Shown here: piece by piece, positions 9,522-57,874 of the stretch
Layout: each line of letters starts with the position of its first letter
Position numbering within the stretch: the first letter of the stretch is position 1
NCBI GenBank assembly: GCA_023484045.1
Contig: JAMDAA010000022.1
Location: 4,201 to 68,200 of the forward strand
Direction: 5' to 3'
DNA length: 64,000 bases
Origin: Patescibacteria group bacterium
GTDB taxonomy: Bacteria; Patescibacteriota; Microgenomatia; Levybacterales; UBA12049
Notes under the pieces: generated by a model
Databases searched by the model: none
Seen by the model: the letters and a program-made list of their open reading frames with translations, nothing else
Told to the model about the DNA's origin: nothing
Translations under genes and position numbers: made by a program

Positions 9522-10205
9522 TTACAGCTTATTGATTTCCGTACTTAATTCCTGATTCCTTACAGCCATTTGAATATCATCTCTGGCAAATTTAACAATC
9601 CCCTCTTTATCGATCACAACGTAACTGTGTCCGGGAAACTGCCCTTTATGCATCGAGGAAGGAAGTGTTAAAACTCCATACTTTTGCGAAACTTGCCTAT
9701 TACCATCAAAAAGCACATTAGCAGAAGCAAGTTCCGGCATTTTATCGATGGCTTGCTTCCACTCATTTTTAGGATCAGCTGTAATATTTAATATCACCGC
9801 TTTACTCCCCAGTTCTGTGTCTTTTCCAAAAGCTGCAATCTGGTTCCAGCAAGCAGGATAACACATTAATCCTTCGTTAAAGAAAAGAATTACGTTTTTG
9901 CCTTTTAACTCACTTAGGATAATCTTTTTTCCATCATAGTTTTCTAGAGTAAAATCAGGAGCACTTTTACCGACCAGGCCATTAAAAATGGTTGCGTCAA
10001 CAGGAGTAGATCCTCCGTGGTGACTTGCCATGGAGTCAGTTTGTGATCCTTGGACCGACTGACCAGTCTCTTTATCTGTAGAAACCTGGTCTCCCTTGCT
10101 ATTTATGTTTACCTCGATATTAAAATTGCTAACAACTAATATCAAAGCTATAACTATCCCGGTACCTAAAATTGCGATAAGTCCAGTTTTATTCAAAATT
10201 ATCAC
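9522..10205 (-). CDS. secreted thioredoxin-fold protein with CxxxC motif (TlpA/Sco-like thiol:disulfide oxidoreductase)
   Basis: 227 aa with an N-terminal TM anchor. Motif ILFFNEGLMCYPACW. Paralog of 11210-11842. Overlaps the downstream CcdA-like gene. Confidence 0.5.
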   Translation of the reverse strand: MIILNKTGLIAILGTGIVIALILVVSNFNIEVNINSKGDQVSTDKETGQSVQGSQTDSMASHHGGSTPVDATIFNGLVGKSAPDFTLENYDGKKIILSELKGKNVILFFNEGLMCYPACWNQIAAFGKDTELGSKAVILNITADPKNEWKQAIDKMPELASANVLFDGNRQVSQKYGVLTLPSSMHKGQFPGHSYVVIDKEGIVKFARDDIQMAVRNQELSTEINKL

Positions 10206-11067: not shown

Positions 11068-11210
11068 ATATTAAATACATTCGATCCATTCGACTACAGC
11101 TCAGGATCGTACTGAGTGAAATCGAATGTACGACTTTGCTCAGTATTTAATCTCTTCGAGCCTGAGCGATCGAGGCCCTCAGAGCCGAAGGCCTGAGTTC
11201 ATCGAAGGAT
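11068..11210. repeat. intergenic palindromic element (MITE/REP-like), 2 parts
   Basis: Part 1 (about 11068-11147) has terminal inverted repeats TTAAATAC...GTATTTAA and an internal hairpin CTCAGgatcgtaCTGAG. Part 2 carries CCTGAGCGA..GCCGAAGG..TCGAAGGAT motifs that recur at 46119-46190 and 57851-57868. Confidence 0.5.
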
Positions 11211-11842
11211 TAAAATTTGTCAATTTCTGTCAACAACTGCTGATTTCTTATTGCCATTTGGGGATCGTCTAAAACATACCGCACAATTCCCCTTTTATCA
11301 AGAACTACATAAGTGTGTCCGGGAAGTTGTCCTTTATGCATTGAAGAAGGAAGAGAAAGCATGTTATAAGAAGCGGAAACTTTTTTATCAGTGTCAAAAA
11401 GAACAGCGGCGGAAGCGAGTTCCGGCATTTTTTCGATCGCCCCTTTCCAGTCATTTTTGGAGTCATTTACAATAGTTAATACTACTGTCTCTTTGCTTGG
11501 GAATTGGTTATCCTTTCCAAAAGCAGCGATCTGATCCCAACAAGCCGGATAACACATTAATCCTTCGCTAAAAAAGAGGATCACATTTTTACCTTTAAGA
11601 CTGCTTAAGGTAATCTTTTTCCCATCATAGCTTTCTAAAGTAAAATCAGGCGCAGGTTTACCAACTAAACTATTAAGAACCGCTGGAGCAGTAGACTGAT
11701 TGGCAGAGGAGCCTTGCCCGCCTAGCTGCGAGGCCGGTCCACTATTACCAGTTAGTAAAAAGGCTACGGCAACAACAATTACAGCTAAAACTACAAACCC
11801 TACTGTAATAATTAATCCTTCTTTATTTCTCATATAATTCAA
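11210..11842 (-). CDS. secreted thioredoxin-fold protein with CxxxC motif, paralog of 9522-10205
   Basis: 210 aa. Same VILFFSEGLMCYPACWDQIAAFGKD core. N-terminal TM anchor. Confidence 0.5.
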   Translation of the reverse strand: MNYMRNKEGLIITVGFVVLAVIVVAVAFLLTGNSGPASQLGGQGSSANQSTAPAVLNSLVGKPAPDFTLESYDGKKITLSSLKGKNVILFFSEGLMCYPACWDQIAAFGKDNQFPSKETVVLTIVNDSKNDWKGAIEKMPELASAAVLFDTDKKVSASYNMLSLPSSMHKGQLPGHTYVVLDKRGIVRYVLDDPQMAIRNQQLLTEIDKF

Positions 11843-46078: not shown

Positions 46079-46208
46079 CTTCGATCCTTGTGGCCAAGAT
46101 GAATCACCAAATAAGTTTACCCTGAGCGAAGCCGAAGGGCTCCCTAACAGTAAGAGCCTGTCCTGAGCGAACGAAGTGAGTCGAAGGATACTTTCACCAC
46201 AAGGATCA
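46079..46208. repeat. intergenic palindromic repeat with CCTGAGCGAAGCCGAAGG motifs
   Basis: Inverted repeat GATCCTTGTGG...CCACAAGGATC flanks two copies of the CTGAGCGAA.CGAAG motif. The same motif occurs at 11158-11205 and 57851-57868. Confidence 0.45.
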
Positions 46209-47480: not shown

Positions 47481-47500
47481 CTGGTGAGCCGGACAGGATT
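47481..47500 (-). other. duplicated 3'-end fragment of tRNA-Lys(TTT), T-loop to CCA
   Basis: ctggtgagccggacaggatt is identical to 56109-56128, the 3' end of the intact tRNA-Lys. Confidence 0.7.
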
Positions 47501-47556: not shown

Positions 47557-47808
47557 CTACATTTCTAGATTCAAAAATCTTTTCTTCATAAATGCGATGC
47601 CTGATCCTGTTTTAAGGTATCGTTCAAATGCCAATGCTTGCCTTTTTGTTTTAAACGCACAATGCCATTCAAGTTGATAATTCAAGTTTGATTTAGTAGA
47701 AAGAACTTTACCTGTCGAGTGTTTTTTTAGACGATTTTTTAAATCAGGGGTATATCCAACATAGTATCTGTTAGTGATGTTATTTCTTAAAATGTAAGTA
47801 TAATACAT
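47557..47808 (-). CDS. small GIY-YIG nuclease-family protein (copy 1)
   Basis: 83 aa. YYTYILRNNITNRYYVGYTPDLKNRLKKH carries the GIY and YIG elements, plus a downstream conserved Arg/Glu. Confidence 0.75.
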   Translation of the reverse strand: MYYTYILRNNITNRYYVGYTPDLKNRLKKHSTGKVLSTKSNLNYQLEWHCAFKTKRQALAFERYLKTGSGIAFMKKRFLNLEM

Positions 47809-47846: not shown

Positions 47847-47986
47847 GTGAACGTTTACGAAAAAATTCGAACCTATTTTAAAAATTAATTACGTCTTGCG
47901 TCAGCTCCTCGCTCGTCCGGCTTCGCCGTCCTCGCTTCGTCGCTATTTCGCTTTCGGCGCGGCGCCCCCACCCGCCGCGCCTCCGC
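47847..47986. repeat. inverted repeat A (about 140 bp), partner A' at 54285-54423
   Basis: The reverse complement matches 54285-54423 with at least one mismatch. The GC-rich body contains the T-loop-like aataggttcgaat. Confidence 0.8.
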
Positions 47987-48720
47987 TCATTTTTTGCGCG
48001 CGCGATTTTCGGGAACTTCGTTCCCCTATAATACCACAAACTGAATCGGCCAAAATGGTGGAAATTGGCCGATTCCAAGTACAAAAACTTCCGGTTCCAC
48101 CACTTTTTTGGTTCTCGCCAAGCCAAACGAAAGAACGAACTGAAGATTTTTCCGGCGGTTCCCGCCGGTTTTTTTGTTTCGCCCCTTCCAAACACTTTAC
48201 TATTGTAGAAGAGTACAAGAGTAGAAGATTAAAGTAGAGGTTATCAAATTTCTATCAACCCACCCACCCGACTGAAATTGTTGGCGGCGACCCCATTCAT
48301 CGCGCGCTGGGCGCCCTAGGGGGCGCCTGCGACAACGGTTTTACTTTTCTAAGAGTTCCTACAGCGCGTCCCTCGCCCCGCTGCGGCGGGGCTTGTCTTT
48401 AGTTTTGACTTTTAAGGCTCGCGCGTTCTGGGGTGTCCGCTTTTCGCCCCCGCCTTCTTTATTTGACCCCTTCCTGCTATTCAGGGCTCGGGTTCACGCT
48501 TAAGGAAATAAACTTTAGAACCCTCGCTCCTGATCCCAATGGCTCGCCCCGCGTTTTCTTTCCCTTAAAGATTATCAAGCGGGGCTCGCGTTAGTCGGGA
48601 ACGCTCGTTAAAGTAAGTGGTAACTCGAAGGGTTTTCTGTCGCGTTCCCTCCTTTTTAGCTGGGTGCTATTGAGGGGGCGGGGGCGGCGGAGCCGCCAAC
48701 AACAAAATGAAAAAAAAAGA
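47987..48720 (+). ncRNA. GC-rich ORF-poor region with many stable hairpins; candidate large structured ncRNA (strand uncertain)
   Basis: About 60% GC against a ~35% background. Only overlapping short ORFs on both strands. Hairpins GGGAACuucgGTTCCC, GAATCGGCCAA..TTGGCCGATTC, GGCGCCCuagGGGGCGCC, GCCCCGCugcgGCGGGGC, GGCGGagCCGCC, and a terminator-like CCGGCGGttcCCGCCGG followed by T7. Confidence 0.4.
48152..48176 (+). terminator. intrinsic-terminator-like hairpin inside the GC-rich region
   Basis: CCGGCGG ttc CCGCCGG followed by TTTTTTTG. Confidence 0.45.
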
Positions 48721-48753
48721 TTTTCTTGTCCCATTTTGATACACTGTTAATAT

Positions 48754-49911
48754 ATGGCTGATGATATTCCCCAAGATCAGACACAAACAACGGAGACAAC
48801 AAGCCCAACAGTTCCACCAACTGACCAACCGCCAGTGGAAACTTCACCAGTGCAACCAACATCAGAACAATCATCAACAAATACAGTTTCTTCAGAAACT
48901 CTAAATATTCCTAATCCTGAACCAGTTGCTCCCGCAACTCCCGAACCACAAACACAACCCGCCGAAGCTAAAACAGAAACTCCTGCACAAATAGAAACAC
49001 AACCGCCTGTTTCTCCTCCTGTTTTTGATATTCCGGCATTACATTTTCCGTTCTCCGGTAATTTTCCAGTGACTTTTTCTTGTGGTCAGCAATCAGATAA
49101 CGAAGAAATCAAAAAGAAATTTCAGGAGTGGGGAATTGTTGGCCACAATGGTTTAGATTTTGGATTAACTTCTGGAACCGAAGTTTATCCATGTGATTCT
49201 GGAAAAGTTGTCCAGTCAGGAGATAACGGCGATTTTGGAACATCAATCACTATTCAACATTCGTGGGGACAATCAATTTACGGACATCTTCAAGAAACTA
49301 GAGTCAAAGAAGGCGACGAAATTCAAGTCAACAACGTAATTGGTCTTTCCGGTTCTTCCGGTGCCGCATTTGGTGATCATCTGCATTTTGCCATCAAACC
49401 AAACAATCCTGATTTAAATAATGGTTATCTTGGTTTTATCGACCCTGCGCCTTATTTATCTTTACCATCTCAAAAAGAAGAAACAACCGAAACACCACCA
49501 ATTCAAACCCCACCCGTTGAAGAACAAATGCCGCTGGAAGAAATTAAACCACCGGAACCAGTTATTCATCAAGAAGAGCCGACAATTAACATTGAGCCGG
49601 AAAAACCAGCAGAACAATCCCAAATTCCTCAACCGAGCAATGAAGAAATTCAAAAACAAGTGGATGAAAAACTAAAAACAGAGTTAGATGCCAGAAGATT
49701 AAAAGCTAATCAGGCCAGACAAACAAAGAGAGAAGAAAATTTAATGAAGATTGAAAAACTAATCGAGGAGAAAAAACTAATTAACAATGACGATGTACGA
49801 GAACTTCTTCATGTTTCCCAATCTACAGCCACTAATTACTTAGAGGATTTAGTAAAACGAGGAACAATTAAACTCAATGGCAAGGGTAAAGCAACGATTT
49901 ACAGTTATTAA
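48754..49911 (+). CDS. M23 (LytM-type) peptidase with Pro/Thr-rich N-terminal region and C-terminal winged-helix-like domain
   Basis: HNGLDFGLTSGTEVY...GHLQE...GDHLHFAIKP M23 motifs. N-terminal PT-rich low complexity. C-terminal VRELLHVSQSTATNYLEDLVKRGTI is HTH-like. Confidence 0.75.
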   Translation: MADDIPQDQTQTTETTSPTVPPTDQPPVETSPVQPTSEQSSTNTVSSETLNIPNPEPVAPATPEPQTQPAEAKTETPAQIETQPPVSPPVFDIPALHFPFSGNFPVTFSCGQQSDNEEIKKKFQEWGIVGHNGLDFGLTSGTEVYPCDSGKVVQSGDNGDFGTSITIQHSWGQSIYGHLQETRVKEGDEIQVNNVIGLSGSSGAAFGDHLHFAIKPNNPDLNNGYLGFIDPAPYLSLPSQKEETTETPPIQTPPVEEQMPLEEIKPPEPVIHQEEPTINIEPEKPAEQSQIPQPSNEEIQKQVDEKLKTELDARRLKANQARQTKREENLMKIEKLIEEKKLINNDDVRELLHVSQSTATNYLEDLVKRGTIKLNGKGKATIYSY

Positions 49912-49963: not shown

Positions 49964-50314
49964 TTATTTTGTTGCTGTGGGTGCCGGATTTGTTGCGGTT
50001 GTTGGTTCAGAGATCGTTTTAGCGACTACTCCGACATTAAACATTTGAGGAAATCTTAATCTGTAAAGGCTCTCCAGAAAATCGGTTCCGGCATAACCTG
50101 CAAGTAAAGATATTCGCCAATCACCATCAGCAATTAATCCTGAAACCACGCCAACAATACCGGAAACCAACATTGTTACCCCAAAATATTGCCAGTGAAT
50201 CTTAAACTCATCAGGGTTTTGAGTTTGTTTTAGTATTCCTACTAATCCGCGAACTAATCCTCCGGCCAGTCCAGTTACTAAATGATAAATTTGAAATTCA
50301 AGTTGTAATTGCAT
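49964..50314 (-). CDS. small two-TM membrane protein (holin-like)
   Basis: 116 aa. Two TM helices and a charged C-terminal tail. Inside the element, near the M23 peptidase. Confidence 0.35.
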   Translation of the reverse strand: MQLQLEFQIYHLVTGLAGGLVRGLVGILKQTQNPDEFKIHWQYFGVTMLVSGIVGVVSGLIADGDWRISLLAGYAGTDFLESLYRLRFPQMFNVGVVAKTISEPTTATNPAPTATK

Positions 50315-50628
50315 TAAGTTTTAGTCACCTCCTTAGATTTTTGTGCTTTTGTACTATTCTGCAAGAGTGCAAACCCACCTTTGCCAAACTTTATTACTTG
50401 ACCAATTTTTGAAATAGTTGAAGTGCTAACTGGAATTTCAGCGGCAATTTCTTCGTATGTTTTGCCTTCCAAAATTAGCTTTGCTATTTTTAGCCTTTGG
50501 GCAAAATCAAGTGTTTTCTCCGGTGAAAACAAGTCTTCGATAAAGATAGTTAAATTCTTTTTGGTTTTGATTTTGAAAAAAGAATTAATAACCAATTGAG
50601 TATCTTTGTTTAGATTTATTTTGTCCAT
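50314..50628 (-). CDS. TrpR-like (YerC/YecD family) DNA-binding protein
   Basis: 104 aa. RLKIAKLILEGKTYEEIAAEIPVSTSTISKIGQVIKFG matches the Trp-repressor-like HTH family. Confidence 0.6.
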   Translation of the reverse strand: MDKINLNKDTQLVINSFFKIKTKKNLTIFIEDLFSPEKTLDFAQRLKIAKLILEGKTYEEIAAEIPVSTSTISKIGQVIKFGKGGFALLQNSTKAQKSKEVTKT

Positions 50629-54120: not shown

Positions 54121-54209
54121 TGGACTCAGTTTTGACGGATTGTGTTTTTTAATGGCGCAATCGGACAGATAGGACACAATCCTAACTGAGTCCACCGGTT
54201 GCGCCATTT
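54121..54209. repeat. interleaved inverted repeats, potentially an H-type pseudoknot
   Basis: X TGGACTCAGTT (54121-31) pairs with AACTGAGTCCA (54185-95). Z GGATTGTG (54137-44) pairs with CACAATCC (54175-82). Y TAATGGCGCAA (54150-60) pairs with TTGCGCCATTA (54199-209). The order is X Z Y Z' X' Y'. Confidence 0.5.
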
Positions 54210-54284
54210 AAGTATTAAAAACTATAGGGAAAAAGTTCTTTAAAATTTTTGCGTTTTTTCTTTAGGATTCGAGCTGACAGTTTT

Positions 54285-54423
54285 CGGAGGCGCGGCGGGT
54301 GGAGGCGCCGCGCCGAAAGCGAAATAGCGACGAAGCGAGGACGGCGAAGCCGGACGAGCGAGGAGCTGACGCAAGACGTAATTAATTTTTAAAATAGGTT
54401 CGAATTTTTTCGTAAACGTTCAC
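54285..54423. repeat. inverted repeat A', partner of 47847-47986
   Basis: Reverse complement of A. Contiguous with B'. Confidence 0.8.
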
Positions 54424-54526
54424 CAGTAAAGAAATTGAAGCAGAAGTGGGGGCAGCGCGAGCCGCGCCCCCAATCGCGGCGAGCGCTGCAAAGGGATATT
54501 TTAACGCTGGCCGGAGTTGCCGGTTA
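54421..54526. repeat. inverted repeat B', perfect partner of 56010-56116
   Basis: tcaccagtaaagaaattgaagcagaagtgggggcagcgcgagccgcgcccccaatcgcggcgagcgctgcaaagggatattttaacgctggccggagttgccggtt equals the reverse complement of 56010-56116. Confidence 0.85.
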
Positions 54527-54614: not shown

Positions 54615-56009
54615 ATGAATAAATACATAGCATATTGCCGAAAATCAACCGACGAGAAAGACAAACAGGTGTTATCTATTGAAGCGCAAATTGCAGAACT
54701 CAAAGAATTTGCTAAACGTGATCATTTAGAAGTTGTTGAATTTATTACCGAAGCCAAAACAGCTAAAATGCCAGGGCGTGAGCAATTTGCGCTAGTCTTA
54801 AAGAAAATTGAAAAAGGAGAAGCCCAAGGCATTATAAGTTGGCACCCAGACCGTTTAGCCAGAAATTCAATAGATGGAGGTAAAGTTATCTATTTATTGG
54901 ATACCGGAAAGTTAATAGATTTGAAATTTCCGTCTTTTTGGTTTGAAAATACTCCCCAAGGAAAATTTATGTTATCCATTGCCTTCGGCCAGTCAAAATA
55001 TTATGTGGATAATTTATCGGAAAATGTAAAGCGTGGTAATCGCCAAAAACTTCGTCGTGGTGAGTGGCCTTCAAAAGCACCATACGGATATATTAATAAT
55101 CCTAAAACCAGAGCCGTTGATGTTGACCCCGAATTATCCAAAGTTGTTAAAAAAGCTTTTCAGCTTTTTTCCGAAGGCAATAAGTCGTTTACGGAAATTT
55201 CAAACTTTATGTTTAAGTTTGGGATGAAGCGGGAAAGTTGTGGGAAACCGATTAAAGTTGATCAAATAAAACGGATGTTATCAAACAAATTTTATGTAGG
55301 AATTTTAAAGTATGCCGATGAATATTATGAAGCTTCCCATAAATGTTTCATCTCCAAACAACTTTTTAATGATGTCCAAAAGCAGGTGGAAAAAATCTTG
55401 CGTCCTAGGCAACACGGCCACGATTTTGCTTTTTCCGGTTTAGCCACTTGTGGAGAGTGCGGCGCCGCAATCACGGCAGAACAACACGTAAAACATTACA
55501 AAAATGGTAAATCCCAAACTTTTATCTATTACCGCTGTACTAAAAAGTTAAAGCCCTGTACACAAAAGTATTTACCAGAAGGTGATTTAGAAGAGCAATT
55601 AAAAAAAGTGGTGGGTGATTGCGGCTTGCACCAGGATTGGGAACCCTATTTTGAAAAATGGATGGCCGAAGATGAGAAAAAAGATCAAGCTAATTCAGAC
55701 ACAGAATTAAGAAGGCTTGGCGAGAACCAAAAGGAAATTGAAACAAAACTTAATCGCTTACTTAATGGTTATTTAGATCAAGTGGTGGAACCGGAAGTTT
55801 ACAAACAAAAGAAAAATGAATTATTTGACGAAAAACTAAAACTTACCGAGCAAATTGCCAAAGTTTCAAAGATTGGTTCGTCTTGGCTCGAACCTATGAG
55901 AGAATTCGTAATTAGCGCCTTGCAGGCGCAAAAAATCGCGCGCGTAAAAAATGAGTGCCATGATTTGGCGATCATGGCAAAAACTGTCGGCTCGAACTAT
56001 TCTTTATTT
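54615..56009 (+). CDS. large serine recombinase (resolvase/invertase catalytic domain plus recombinase and zinc-ribbon-like extension)
   Basis: N-terminus YIAYCRKSTDEKDKQVLSIEAQ with the catalytic Ser in the Y.R.S context. About 465 aa to the start of repeat B. The frame stays open through B and antisense tRNA-Lys to 56276. C-terminal Cys pairs CGECG..CTKK. Confidence 0.8.
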
Positions 56010-56116
56010 AACCGGCAACTCCGGCCAGCGTTAAAATATCCCTTTGCAGCGCTCGCCGCGATTGGGGGCGCGGCTCGCGCTGCCCCCACTTCTGCTTCAA
56101 TTTCTTTACTGGTGAG
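56010..56116. repeat. inverted repeat B (107 bp) abutting and overlapping the tRNA-Lys CCA end
   Basis: Perfect reverse complement of 54421-54526. Contains the strong hairpin GGGGGCGCGgctCGCGCtgCCCCC. Ends in CTGGTGA, shared with the tRNA 3' terminus. Confidence 0.85.
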
Positions 56117-56184
56117 CCGGACAGGATTCGAACCTGTGACCAATTGCTTAAAAGGCAACTGCTCTACCGCTGAGCTACCGGCCC
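56110..56184 (-). tRNA. tRNA-Lys (anticodon TTT) with encoded CCA
   Basis: Acceptor GGGCCGG/CCGGCTC, anticodon stem GTTGC/GCAAT, loop CTTTTAA, T-loop TTCGAAT, 3' ACCA. Confidence 0.85.
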
Positions 56185-56272
56185 GCCCACCACGCAAGCC
56201 GAGCATTGCGAGGCGTTGCGGGCAGGCCCGCTCGCCCCATCTTCACACTCAACTTTTGCAGCTTTTTAAATT

Positions 56273-56524
56273 CTAGTTTTCAAAAATTTTCTTCCAAATC
56301 CAGTTTTAAAATATTTTTCTCTTTTAATCGCCTTTTCTTTATCTAAGCACGCTTCGTAATATATTAGTCTTAAAGGTAATCTGCCTTTTGTTGCTAAGCT
56401 TTTTCTTTTTCTGTGAACTTCTAACCTTTTCTTTAAATCTTCTGTATATCCAGTATAAAGCTTACCGTCTTTTTCACTTTTAAGAACATATGTATAAACA
56501 TTACCTTTTCTCGTGATTATATCA
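56273..56524 (-). pseudogene. GIY-YIG nuclease-family gene (copy 3) lacking a canonical start codon
   Basis: Minus-strand frame encodes ITRKGNVYTYVLKSEKDGKLYTGYTEDLKKRLEVHRK...REKYFKTGFGRKFL with an in-frame TAA immediately upstream and no ATG, GTG or TTG. Not in the ORF track. Lies 88 bp upstream of tRNA-Lys on the same strand. Confidence 0.5.
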
Positions 56525-57547: not shown

Positions 57548-57838
57548 ATGAATAAGCCTCAGAGTTGGTATCTTTACATGCTTCTTTGCGATCAGAAATC
57601 TTTTTATGTTGGGATTACTCCTAATCCGAAAGAAAGAATAGCCGAACATAGAAATAAAGAGTGCATCGCGACGAAAGAATTTTCTGATTTTAAAATGGTT
57701 TATTGTGAAAAGTATTTGAATAAATTTGAAGCAGTAAAAAGAGAAAAACAAATTAAAGGTTGGAGTAGAACAAAGAAGCAAATGCTTATTGAAGGAAAAT
57801 TAGGGATAAATACAAGCACTGAGTTTGTCGAAGTGTAA
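57548..57838 (+). CDS. small GIY-YIG nuclease-family protein (copy 2)
   Basis: 96 aa. WYLYMLLCDQKSFYVGITPNPKERIAEH, with a downstream conserved Arg and Glu. Starts 27 nt after tRNA-Glu. Confidence 0.75.
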   Translation: MNKPQSWYLYMLLCDQKSFYVGITPNPKERIAEHRNKECIATKEFSDFKMVYCEKYLNKFEAVKREKQIKGWSRTKKQMLIEGKLGINTSTEFVEV

Positions 57839-57874
57839 AGAGGATGAGAAGTTTACTCTGAGCGAAGCCGAAGA

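Follow-up and report, generated by a model that had tools for sequence, protein, structure and literature searches.

We analysed a 64,000-nucleotide (nt) stretch of a Patescibacteria contig (JAMDAA010000022.1), called the window below, and within it a block at 47987–48720 that a sequence-only reading had proposed as one large structured RNA. The block lies just inside repeat A, the left one of two inverted repeats (A and A′) that bound a 6.3-kb cassette, the cargo of which consists of an M23 peptidase, holin-like and TrpR-like proteins, and surface proteins. Beyond A′ stands the gene of a large serine recombinase, flanked by a second pair of inverted repeats (B and B′), and the 3′ end of a tRNA-Lys(UUU) gene adjoins B′ (Table 1). 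The expectation of a structured RNA inside a mobile element near tRNAs therefore agrees with the setting, which is a recombinase-associated island. The proposal of one large RNA holds for positions 48278–48702, where we find a conserved multi-helix element of ~425 nt, and fails for the first third of the block, since the first ~290 nt (47986–48250) form a module separate from the large RNA.

Table 1. Features of the locus in window coordinates; the strand given for RNA elements is the predicted one.
Feature	Position	Strand	Basis or remark
Large structured RNA, ~425 nt	48278–48702	+	consensus of 33 copies, covariation
Terminal helix, 9–11 bp, closes the domain	48279–48287 with 48693–48701	+	consensus fold
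Long-range helix	48291–48295 with 48429–48433	+	consensus fold
Long-range helix	48302–48305 with 48423–48426	+	consensus fold
Long-range helix	48436–48438 with 48689–48691	+	consensus fold
Invariant 11-bp long-range helix, UCGCCCCCGCC with GGCGGGGGCGG	48444–48454 with 48677–48687	+	consensus fold
Four conserved hairpins	48309–48328, 48375–48392, 48542–48589, 48597–48649	+	consensus fold
Variable arm	~48489–48522	+	four stem sequences, one loss
Three tandem octamers GTA(G/C)AAGA in conserved stretch ACTTTACTATTGTAGAAGAGTACAAGA	48205–48228	+	just upstream of the large RNA
M23 peptidase with C-terminal winged-helix domain, the usual gene after the RNA	48754–49911	+	domain search, locus comparison
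Extended −10 element TGATACACT (TGNTACACT), 8 nt before the M23 start codon	48737–48745	+	locus comparison
Box C1, inverted copy of recombinase 55955–55932, 23/24	47986–48009	+	immediately inside repeat A
Small hairpin GGGAAC-UUC-GUUCCC	48011–48025	+	covaries, GGAAAG/CUUUCC in L001
TATAAT (TATAATACCAC), candidate −10 of a small RNA ending at 48152–48176	48027–48032	+	conserved in type I loci only
33-nt hairpin, 11-bp covarying stem, invariant central 11 nt AATGGTGGAAA	48043–48075		locus comparison
Box C2, inverted copy of recombinase 55800–55780, 21/21	48085–48105	+	sequence match
Box C3, inverted copy of recombinase 55732–55714, 19/19	48106–48124	+	sequence match
Intrinsic terminator CCGGCGG-UUC-CCGCCGG, then U7	48152–48176	+	terminator scan
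Inverted repeat A, left arm, 139 nt, 99% to A′	47847–47985		block just inside A
Inverted repeat A′, right arm of the 6.3-kb cassette	54285–54423		repeat search
Inverted repeats B / B′, 100% identical, flank the recombinase gene	54420–54526 / 56009–56115		repeat search
Large serine recombinase (Resolvase + Recombinase + Zn_ribbon_recom)	54615–56276	+	domain search
tRNA-Lys(UUU), 3′ end adjoins B′	56110–56184	−	tRNA scan
20-nt copy of the tRNA-Lys(UUU) 3′ end, direct repeat of 56109–56128, 20/20	47481–47500	−	candidate outer left boundary

Related loci (each designated L with a number) were fetched from species-representative genomes with the protein of the downstream M23 peptidase as the query, which yielded metagenome-assembled genomes of Patescibacteria and the complete genome of Candidatus Beckwithbacteria GW2011_GWC1_49_16 (L001; CP011210). 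The non-coding block was kept upstream of the M23 homologue, with an identity to the window of 88% in L004, 80% in L001, 79.5% in L002 and ~70% in L006, whereas the M23 protein in those species was only 58–75% identical, below the 70–88% of the non-coding block. Furthermore, a near-invariant motif at the 3′ end of the RNA pulled out 118 metagenome stretches, and about 70–80 loci, all on low-GC contigs, were confirmed as homologous with nhmmer. The homologues come from Patescibacteria (Beckwithbacteria/WWE3-type) genomes and from metagenomes, and the window holds one copy. A similarity search of phage DNA with 47847–48753 gave no match, and the two hits in a scan of viral contigs were rejected as chance; a profile search confirmed neither of them. 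Natural variants with internal deletions also occur: one (L098, 8217–8548) is without about the middle third of the RNA, and another (L018, 88–236) retains its two ends only.

The consensus was built from 33 distinct full-length copies, the alignment of which has 615 columns and pairwise identities of 53–99.6% (mean 75%). The results show that, across the 62 consensus pairs, 97.6% of the cells are standard-paired and that double compensatory changes occur in 22 pairs (118 cells), values equalled by none of 500 column shuffles. When the 3′ partners were slid by 1–3 columns as a control, pairing fell to ~50%, and no more than 9 pairs and 29 cells still had double changes. Compensatory pairs in 48278–48702 are thus above the controls, as is generally asked of a structured RNA, and the alignment of relatives that the sequence-only reading had suggested as a check has brought up both homologous loci and abundant compensatory base changes. 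The variable arm has four unrelated stem sequences in one architecture and was lost in one copy, a pattern typical of an RNA expansion arm. The variable columns are split 106/105/103 over the codon positions, that is, without codon periodicity, and 67 of the 82 gap runs in the alignment are not multiples of 3. The degenerate coding gene that had been considered as a refuting outcome is therefore not what the large RNA turns out to be; with no Pfam match, no periodicity and indels that disrupt the frame, a coding origin was rejected for it, and only three boxes of the 5′ module (C1–C3) derive from coding sequence. As judged from the alignment, 48278–48702 is a conserved, non-coding, multi-helix element kept by compensatory substitutions in at least 33 distinct copies. 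A blind covariation scan of column pairs for extra helices or pseudoknots gave none that was reliable, the signal being swamped by matches between G-runs and U-runs.

The composition of the block is less extreme than first described. Its GC content is 50.7%, compared with 37.7% for the whole window, and the value of about 60% that had been given for it is true of sub-lobes only: the region has GC-rich lobes at 47896–48050 (61.9%) and 48250–48700 (56.8%), and the stretch between them is at 41.7%. As had been stated, only short overlapping open reading frames (ORFs) are present, the longest being 113, 105 and 91 amino acids (aa) at 47878–48237, and a Pfam search of the ORFs of the block gave no match. 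Repeats A and B are both present and both GC-rich, and four of the hairpins described from the sequence lie where the letters place them, namely GCCCCGC-UGCG-GCGGGGC (48375–48392), GGCGCCC-UAG-GGGGCGCC (48310–48327), the 11-bp stem GAATCGGCCAA/TTGGCCGATTC (48043–48075) and the terminator-like CCGGCGG-UUC-CCGCCGG with its U-run (48152–48176). Two others had to be redrawn: the supposed UUCG tetraloop of the GGGAAC/GUUCCC hairpin is a UUC triloop, and the halves of GGCGG-AG-CCGCC (48686–48697) are split between two different long-range helices of the conserved fold. Folding was better than that of dinucleotide shuffles on both strands (z = −5.75 on the + strand and −4.96 on the − strand), which reflects the palindrome richness of the region and nothing more.

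On which strand is the large RNA encoded? We moved this call from RNAalifold energies to counts of pair types on the covarying helices. On the + strand, 97.6% of the consensus pairs are standard, compared with 89.8% on the − strand. The number of G·U cells is 166 on the + strand and 7 on the − strand, or 37 and 7 when only helix interiors are counted. In addition, the loop of the hairpin at 48375–48392 reads on the + strand as UGCG (eight times), UACG, CGCG, AUCG and similar sequences, which are UNCG-like, and the complements of these loops belong to no known stable loop family. The conserved terminator just upstream of the large RNA is also on the + strand. Taken together, the pair types, the loops and the terminator make it likely that the large RNA lies on the + strand and is read rightward. 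The three tandem octamers just upstream of it are a candidate promoter or operator.

Could the ~425-nt structure be a cis-acting leader, such as a very large riboswitch-like or attenuator element for the M23/lysis-type cassette? The RNA and the M23 gene are on one strand with no terminator between them, and an ORF of the same orientation, in nearly all cases an M23 homologue, begins 18–67 nt after the RNA in ~38 of 48 distinct contexts; all this would suit a leader. On the other hand, a riboswitch or leader is always upstream of its target and co-transcribed with it, and in 7 of the ~48 contexts a convergent housekeeping gene comes directly after an intact RNA. The RNA copies from these convergent-gene contexts differ from one another by compensatory changes, that is, they still covary. 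Furthermore, the extended −10 element is found at exactly 8 nt from the M23 ATG in 27 of 28 distinct loci. This fixed spacing suggests that M23 has its own promoter, as far as promoter function can be read from such an element, and is translated from a nearly leaderless mRNA that would exclude the RNA. Two loci separate the RNA from M23 altogether. In L096, a ~0.95-kb module (repeat A, the 5′ unit and the RNA) is found alone between RuvC/tRNA-Lys and a PHP-family gene, and in L027 the cassette carries a different cargo, consisting of an HDAC-like enzyme, an oxidoreductase and other metabolic genes, which lies 313 nt from the RNA and includes no M23. Because of the convergent contexts, the solo module, the cargo of L027 and the −10 element of M23 itself, a stand-alone RNA is favoured, and we judge a leader to be unlikely. 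On balance, we lean towards a ~425-nt conserved RNA that is its own rightward gene, not the 5′ untranslated region of M23, and that is located in the left arm of probably invertible, recombinase-linked cassettes.

We then compared this RNA with the known families. Rfam scans were run at the gathering threshold on the window and on L001, L004 and L006, and at a permissive E ≤ 10 on the window and the L095 and L027 copies. At the gathering threshold, Rfam 15 found four tRNAs in the window and nothing else. The permissive scan of the window gave no match overlapping the block below E = 1, and the divergent L095 and L027 copies, like L001, L004 and L006, gave no family besides tRNAs and noise. GOLLD (RF01998) had no match at the gathering threshold, nor at E ≤ 10 in the window and the L095 and L027 copies; ROOL (RF03087) had no covariance-model match in the window or the other copies scanned. 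The models of HEARO/IscB omega-RNA (RF02033) and OLE RNA (RF01071) did not match either, nor did those of group I and group II introns or of raiA, RNase P RNA, tmRNA, SRP and 6S. The neighbours of the element are a GIY-YIG ORF and the M23 peptidase, without an IscB or HNH gene, and the element is intergenic, without a reverse-transcriptase or LAGLIDADG ORF. Since GOLLD, ROOL, HEARO, OLE and the introns stay unmatched in these three diverse copies even when E ≤ 10 is allowed, the large RNA appears to be a new class, outside those that had been named as candidates when the block was first described. A housekeeping large RNA was also rejected, as there is no Rfam match and the element is found in varying genomic contexts that are tied to recombinase islands. 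In the literature that we searched, we found no description of this ~425-nt RNA and no specific large non-coding RNA class reported for the candidate phyla radiation (CPR)/Patescibacteria.

The RNA nevertheless resembles GOLLD and ROOL in being a large, multi-helix, strongly covarying non-coding RNA, in its location on mobile or prophage-like DNA near tRNA genes and beside lysis-type genes, and, on the reading favoured here, in being a stand-alone gene instead of a leader. It differs from both in its length (~425 nt versus roughly 580–800), in matching neither covariance model, in its CPR/Patescibacteria hosts, and in its residence in a serine-recombinase island with inverted-repeat ends rather than in a complete prophage. 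Like the bridge (seek) RNAs of IS110/IS1111, it is a structured non-coding RNA at one end of a recombinase-bearing mobile element; unlike them, it is more than twice as long and is accompanied by a large serine recombinase, with no DEDD IS110-type enzyme. An IS110-type bridge RNA was rejected, given the Resolvase + Recombinase + Zn_ribbon_recom domains of the recombinase and the longest RNA–tRNA matches, which are within the shuffle range. When the idea of a guide RNA was examined in five loci, complementarity of the RNA to the tRNAs and junctions was likewise within the shuffle range, with one exception: a hairpin loop resembles the B′/tRNA junction in L001.

The 5′ module (47986–48250) has a different origin. 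Its sequence follows, in colinear order and in shortened form, the reverse complement of the final ~270 nt of the serine-recombinase gene, and three boxes (C1–C3) have been retained. A + strand transcript of C2 and C3 would be antisense to the recombinase mRNA. These two boxes match the local recombinase genes in type I loci only (the window, L001 and L004), and a self-contained hairpin is found in their place in type II loci. In L027, there is a C1-type box of different sequence that matches its own recombinase at 19/19 positions. The TATAAT downstream of C1 was not called by a simple promoter scan; in nearly all loci the terminator keeps its stem, though with changes, and has a T-run after it. 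The layout of 48027–48176 suggests a ~140-nt small RNA, the single-stranded part of which would be antisense to the recombinase mRNA. Like antisense small RNAs, this unit combines a −10-like box and a 5′ stem-loop with 40 nt of perfect complementarity to a coding region and with a Rho-independent terminator; unlike the usual ones, it has its target boxes far into the 3′ portion of the recombinase ORF, and the boxes persist where the local recombinase is without complementary sequence. Because C2 and C3 are unmatched in this way in L064 and L099, we keep the antisense model tentative.

Within the same module, the 33-nt hairpin was found in 18 distinct variants, with compensatory changes at 3 stem positions and a centre, AATGGTGGAAA, that is invariant in all. 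The orientation of this centre relative to the RNA is as in the window in 17 of 25 distinct contexts and inverted in the other 8, the flanks being unchanged. The centre includes TGGTG, the complement of the tRNA-end core CACCA. For this hairpin, a role as duplex DNA, namely as a protein or recombinase site, seems more likely than a role as RNA. The recombination enhancer that the sequence-only reading had offered as an alternative may partly fit the first third of the block. The hairpin is found in ~38 loci, and in L095, L050 and L031 its place is downstream of the RNA rather than upstream.

The inverted repeats have tRNA-like ends. On the − strand, the outer end of A reads as the 3′ half of a pseudo-tRNA (AGGTTCGAAT...TCAC(CA)), and A′ is alike; this mimicry indicates that a unit of “tRNA end + B” was duplicated in inverted orientation. 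A and A′ are kept as an inverted pair in L001 and L004 (132 nt, 100%), and so are B and B′, so that both pairs are conserved in three species, one of them represented by a complete genome; L105 has an inverted repeat analogous to B. Analogous inverted repeats of 75–166 nt, with other sequences, bound the cassette in L027, L040, L090, L094 and L121, and their arms are 88% identical in L040 and 99–100% identical in the other four. Near-identical arms despite sequences that differ between loci indicate that the repeats evolve in concert. The same island architecture is found beside tRNA-Glu in L001 and tRNA-Val in L004, and an island that stands beside different tRNA genes in different loci would be mobile.

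The recombinase gene lies 7–10.7 kb downstream or directly upstream of the RNA in at least 14 loci. In L064 and L099 it is directly upstream of A, compared with the opposite arrangement in the window, L001 and L004. In L033 and L121, which are 99.9–100% identical, the cassette is in opposite orientations relative to the recombinase-bearing flank. The cassette is probably invertible, though the repeats are longer than the assembler k-mers and would allow either orientation to be assembled. We infer that the ~0.95-kb non-coding module, made up of repeat A, the small RNA-like unit and the large RNA, is the left arm of recombinase-associated cassettes. As in Hin/Gin/Cin-type invertons and shufflons, there are inverted repeats around a cassette, a serine recombinase nearby and both orientations among near-identical contigs. 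Unlike in those systems, the recombinase here belongs to the large (integrase-type) class, the repeats measure 100–166 nt and bear a tRNA-3′-end-like core, and no promoter or gene fusion switched by inversion was identified here. To our knowledge, Hin/Gin/Cin-type invertons and shufflons have no large RNA.

Other observations concern the island as a whole. As assembled, the recombinase ORF has no stop until 56276 and runs through B′ and the antisense of tRNA-Lys; with the B/B′ segment inverted, it would end in A′ (...LLVNVYEKIRTYFKN*). The direct repeat of 47481–47500 and 56109–56128 looks like an att-type duplication around an integrated island of ~8.6 kb, and no direct repeat of that length is present in the islands at tRNA-Glu in L001 and tRNA-Val in L004. 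The holin-like and TrpR-like proteins (49964–50628) are 80–92% identical across lineages labelled Beckwithbacteria, WWE3 and others, far above the vertical expectation, which suggests that the island spread horizontally in recent time.

What might the large RNA do? As a tentative proposal, held with low confidence as a whole, it could serve the island in trans, as a scaffold or as a protein-binding RNA. It would then work with the M23 winged-helix, holin-like and TrpR-like proteins of the island core, in the way that GOLLD and ROOL go along with genes of prophages, and the upstream small RNA-like unit, via its antisense boxes, may tune the expression of the recombinase.

Several points weigh against this interpretation, or against the stand-alone gene on which it is built. 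An M23 gene within 18–67 nt in ~80% of the contexts is compatible with a role in cis. No clear promoter was found for the large RNA and no terminator after it, and read-through into or from neighbouring units is possible; its transcription, ends and strand are all inferred from sequence comparison. As to the strand, RNAalifold energies fail to separate the two (−238 vs −248), and most of the G·U cells on the + strand are at helix ends. In the 5′ module, C2 and C3 persist in L064 and L099 although the local recombinase gene is without the complement, and the flipping of the loop in the 33-nt hairpin fits a DNA-level role there better than an RNA-level one. Finally, the trans-acting scaffold is proposed by analogy and is not itself a result.

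Next to the leader discussed above, an alternative is that the RNA and the small upstream unit are partners of the recombinase, acting as regulators or cofactors of the inversion, excision or integration of the island. The module always starts with an inverted-repeat arm bearing the tRNA-3′-end-like core; C1–C3 are inverted copies of the recombinase 3′ end, with a C1-type box that co-varies with its partner in the divergent L027; and a recombinase is present in at least 14 informative loci, the cassette being seen both ways round. However, the RNA is ~80–88% conserved and the neighbouring recombinases are 42–93% identical at the amino acid level, and such a difference in conservation indicates that the two do not co-evolve. 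Solo modules occur without a recombinase within 8–12 kb, the complementarity of the RNA to target tRNA regions is no better than chance, and we know of no RNA-dependent serine recombinase. Such a partnership is therefore quite improbable in our view, and we give slightly less credence still to the more specific claim that the large RNA and the small unit determine how often, or in which direction, inversion, excision or integration takes place at the tRNA-end-like sites. If true, RNA assistance or RNA regulation would be seen for the first time in a system of the large-serine-recombinase class.

The element could also act as DNA, its palindromes being protein or cruciform sites of a recombination enhancer or of a replication origin for the excised island. 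Compensatory changes keep palindromes equally on both strands, the invariant core of the 5′ hairpin tolerates inversion, which suits the recognition of duplex DNA, and tRNA-end-like TCACCA cores are shared by repeats A and B and the hairpin loop. Helices that span 130–420 nt, one of which closes the whole domain, are nevertheless hard to explain in duplex DNA, and the asymmetry of G·U versus A·C (166 vs 7), together with the UNCG-type loops, indicates an RNA of one strand. The island has no replication initiator gene, and we consider a DNA-level function of the large element very improbable. That the block is a decayed coding gene from a high-GC donor or an assembly artefact can hardly be true: its first ~140 nt (C1–C3) do derive from the recombinase 3′ coding region as an inverted, shortened copy, and short-read assemblers could be confused by inverted repeats of this length, but 48278–48702 has no codon periodicity, indels off multiples of 3 and compensatory substitutions, and the architecture recurs in dozens of independent contigs as well as in CP011210, a complete genome.

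Among bacterial RNAs, large structured ones are rare, and RNase P, group II introns, OLE, GOLLD, ROOL and raiA each showed unusual biochemistry or architecture. Support for the candidate stand-alone RNA described here is unusually good: there are ~80 examples, covariation is abundant, and a helix joins the two ends of the domain. No protein gene in its surroundings is as well conserved, and the RNA travels with an island that apparently moves between tRNA genes and inverts. It is a tractable target for structural work, and it offers a way into how uncultivated, host-dependent bacteria regulate a cassette of a cell-wall hydrolase and surface proteins.

A few minor features of the window remain. 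Two ORFs of GIY-YIG nucleases, 83 and 96 aa long, lie at 47557–47808 (−) and 57548–57838 (+), each adjoining a tRNA gene or fragment, and a 25-nt repeat (96%) is found near them at 46113–46137 and 57849–57873; the two ORFs are possibly homing-type insertions of a selfish kind. The surface-protein gene and A′ are separated by a spacer of 550 nt, in which a conserved hairpin at 54140–54215 (AATGGCGCAA...TTGCGCCATT) encloses CGGACAGAT...GAGTCCACCGG, which resembles the 3′ region of tRNA-Lys, and a similar element with TTCACCAG is present in L105; this hairpin may be an att-like site. Far from the island, three colinear direct repeats (70–80%), ~1690 nt apart, are found at 9522–9988 and 11210–11679, and these are probably tandem paralogous genes.

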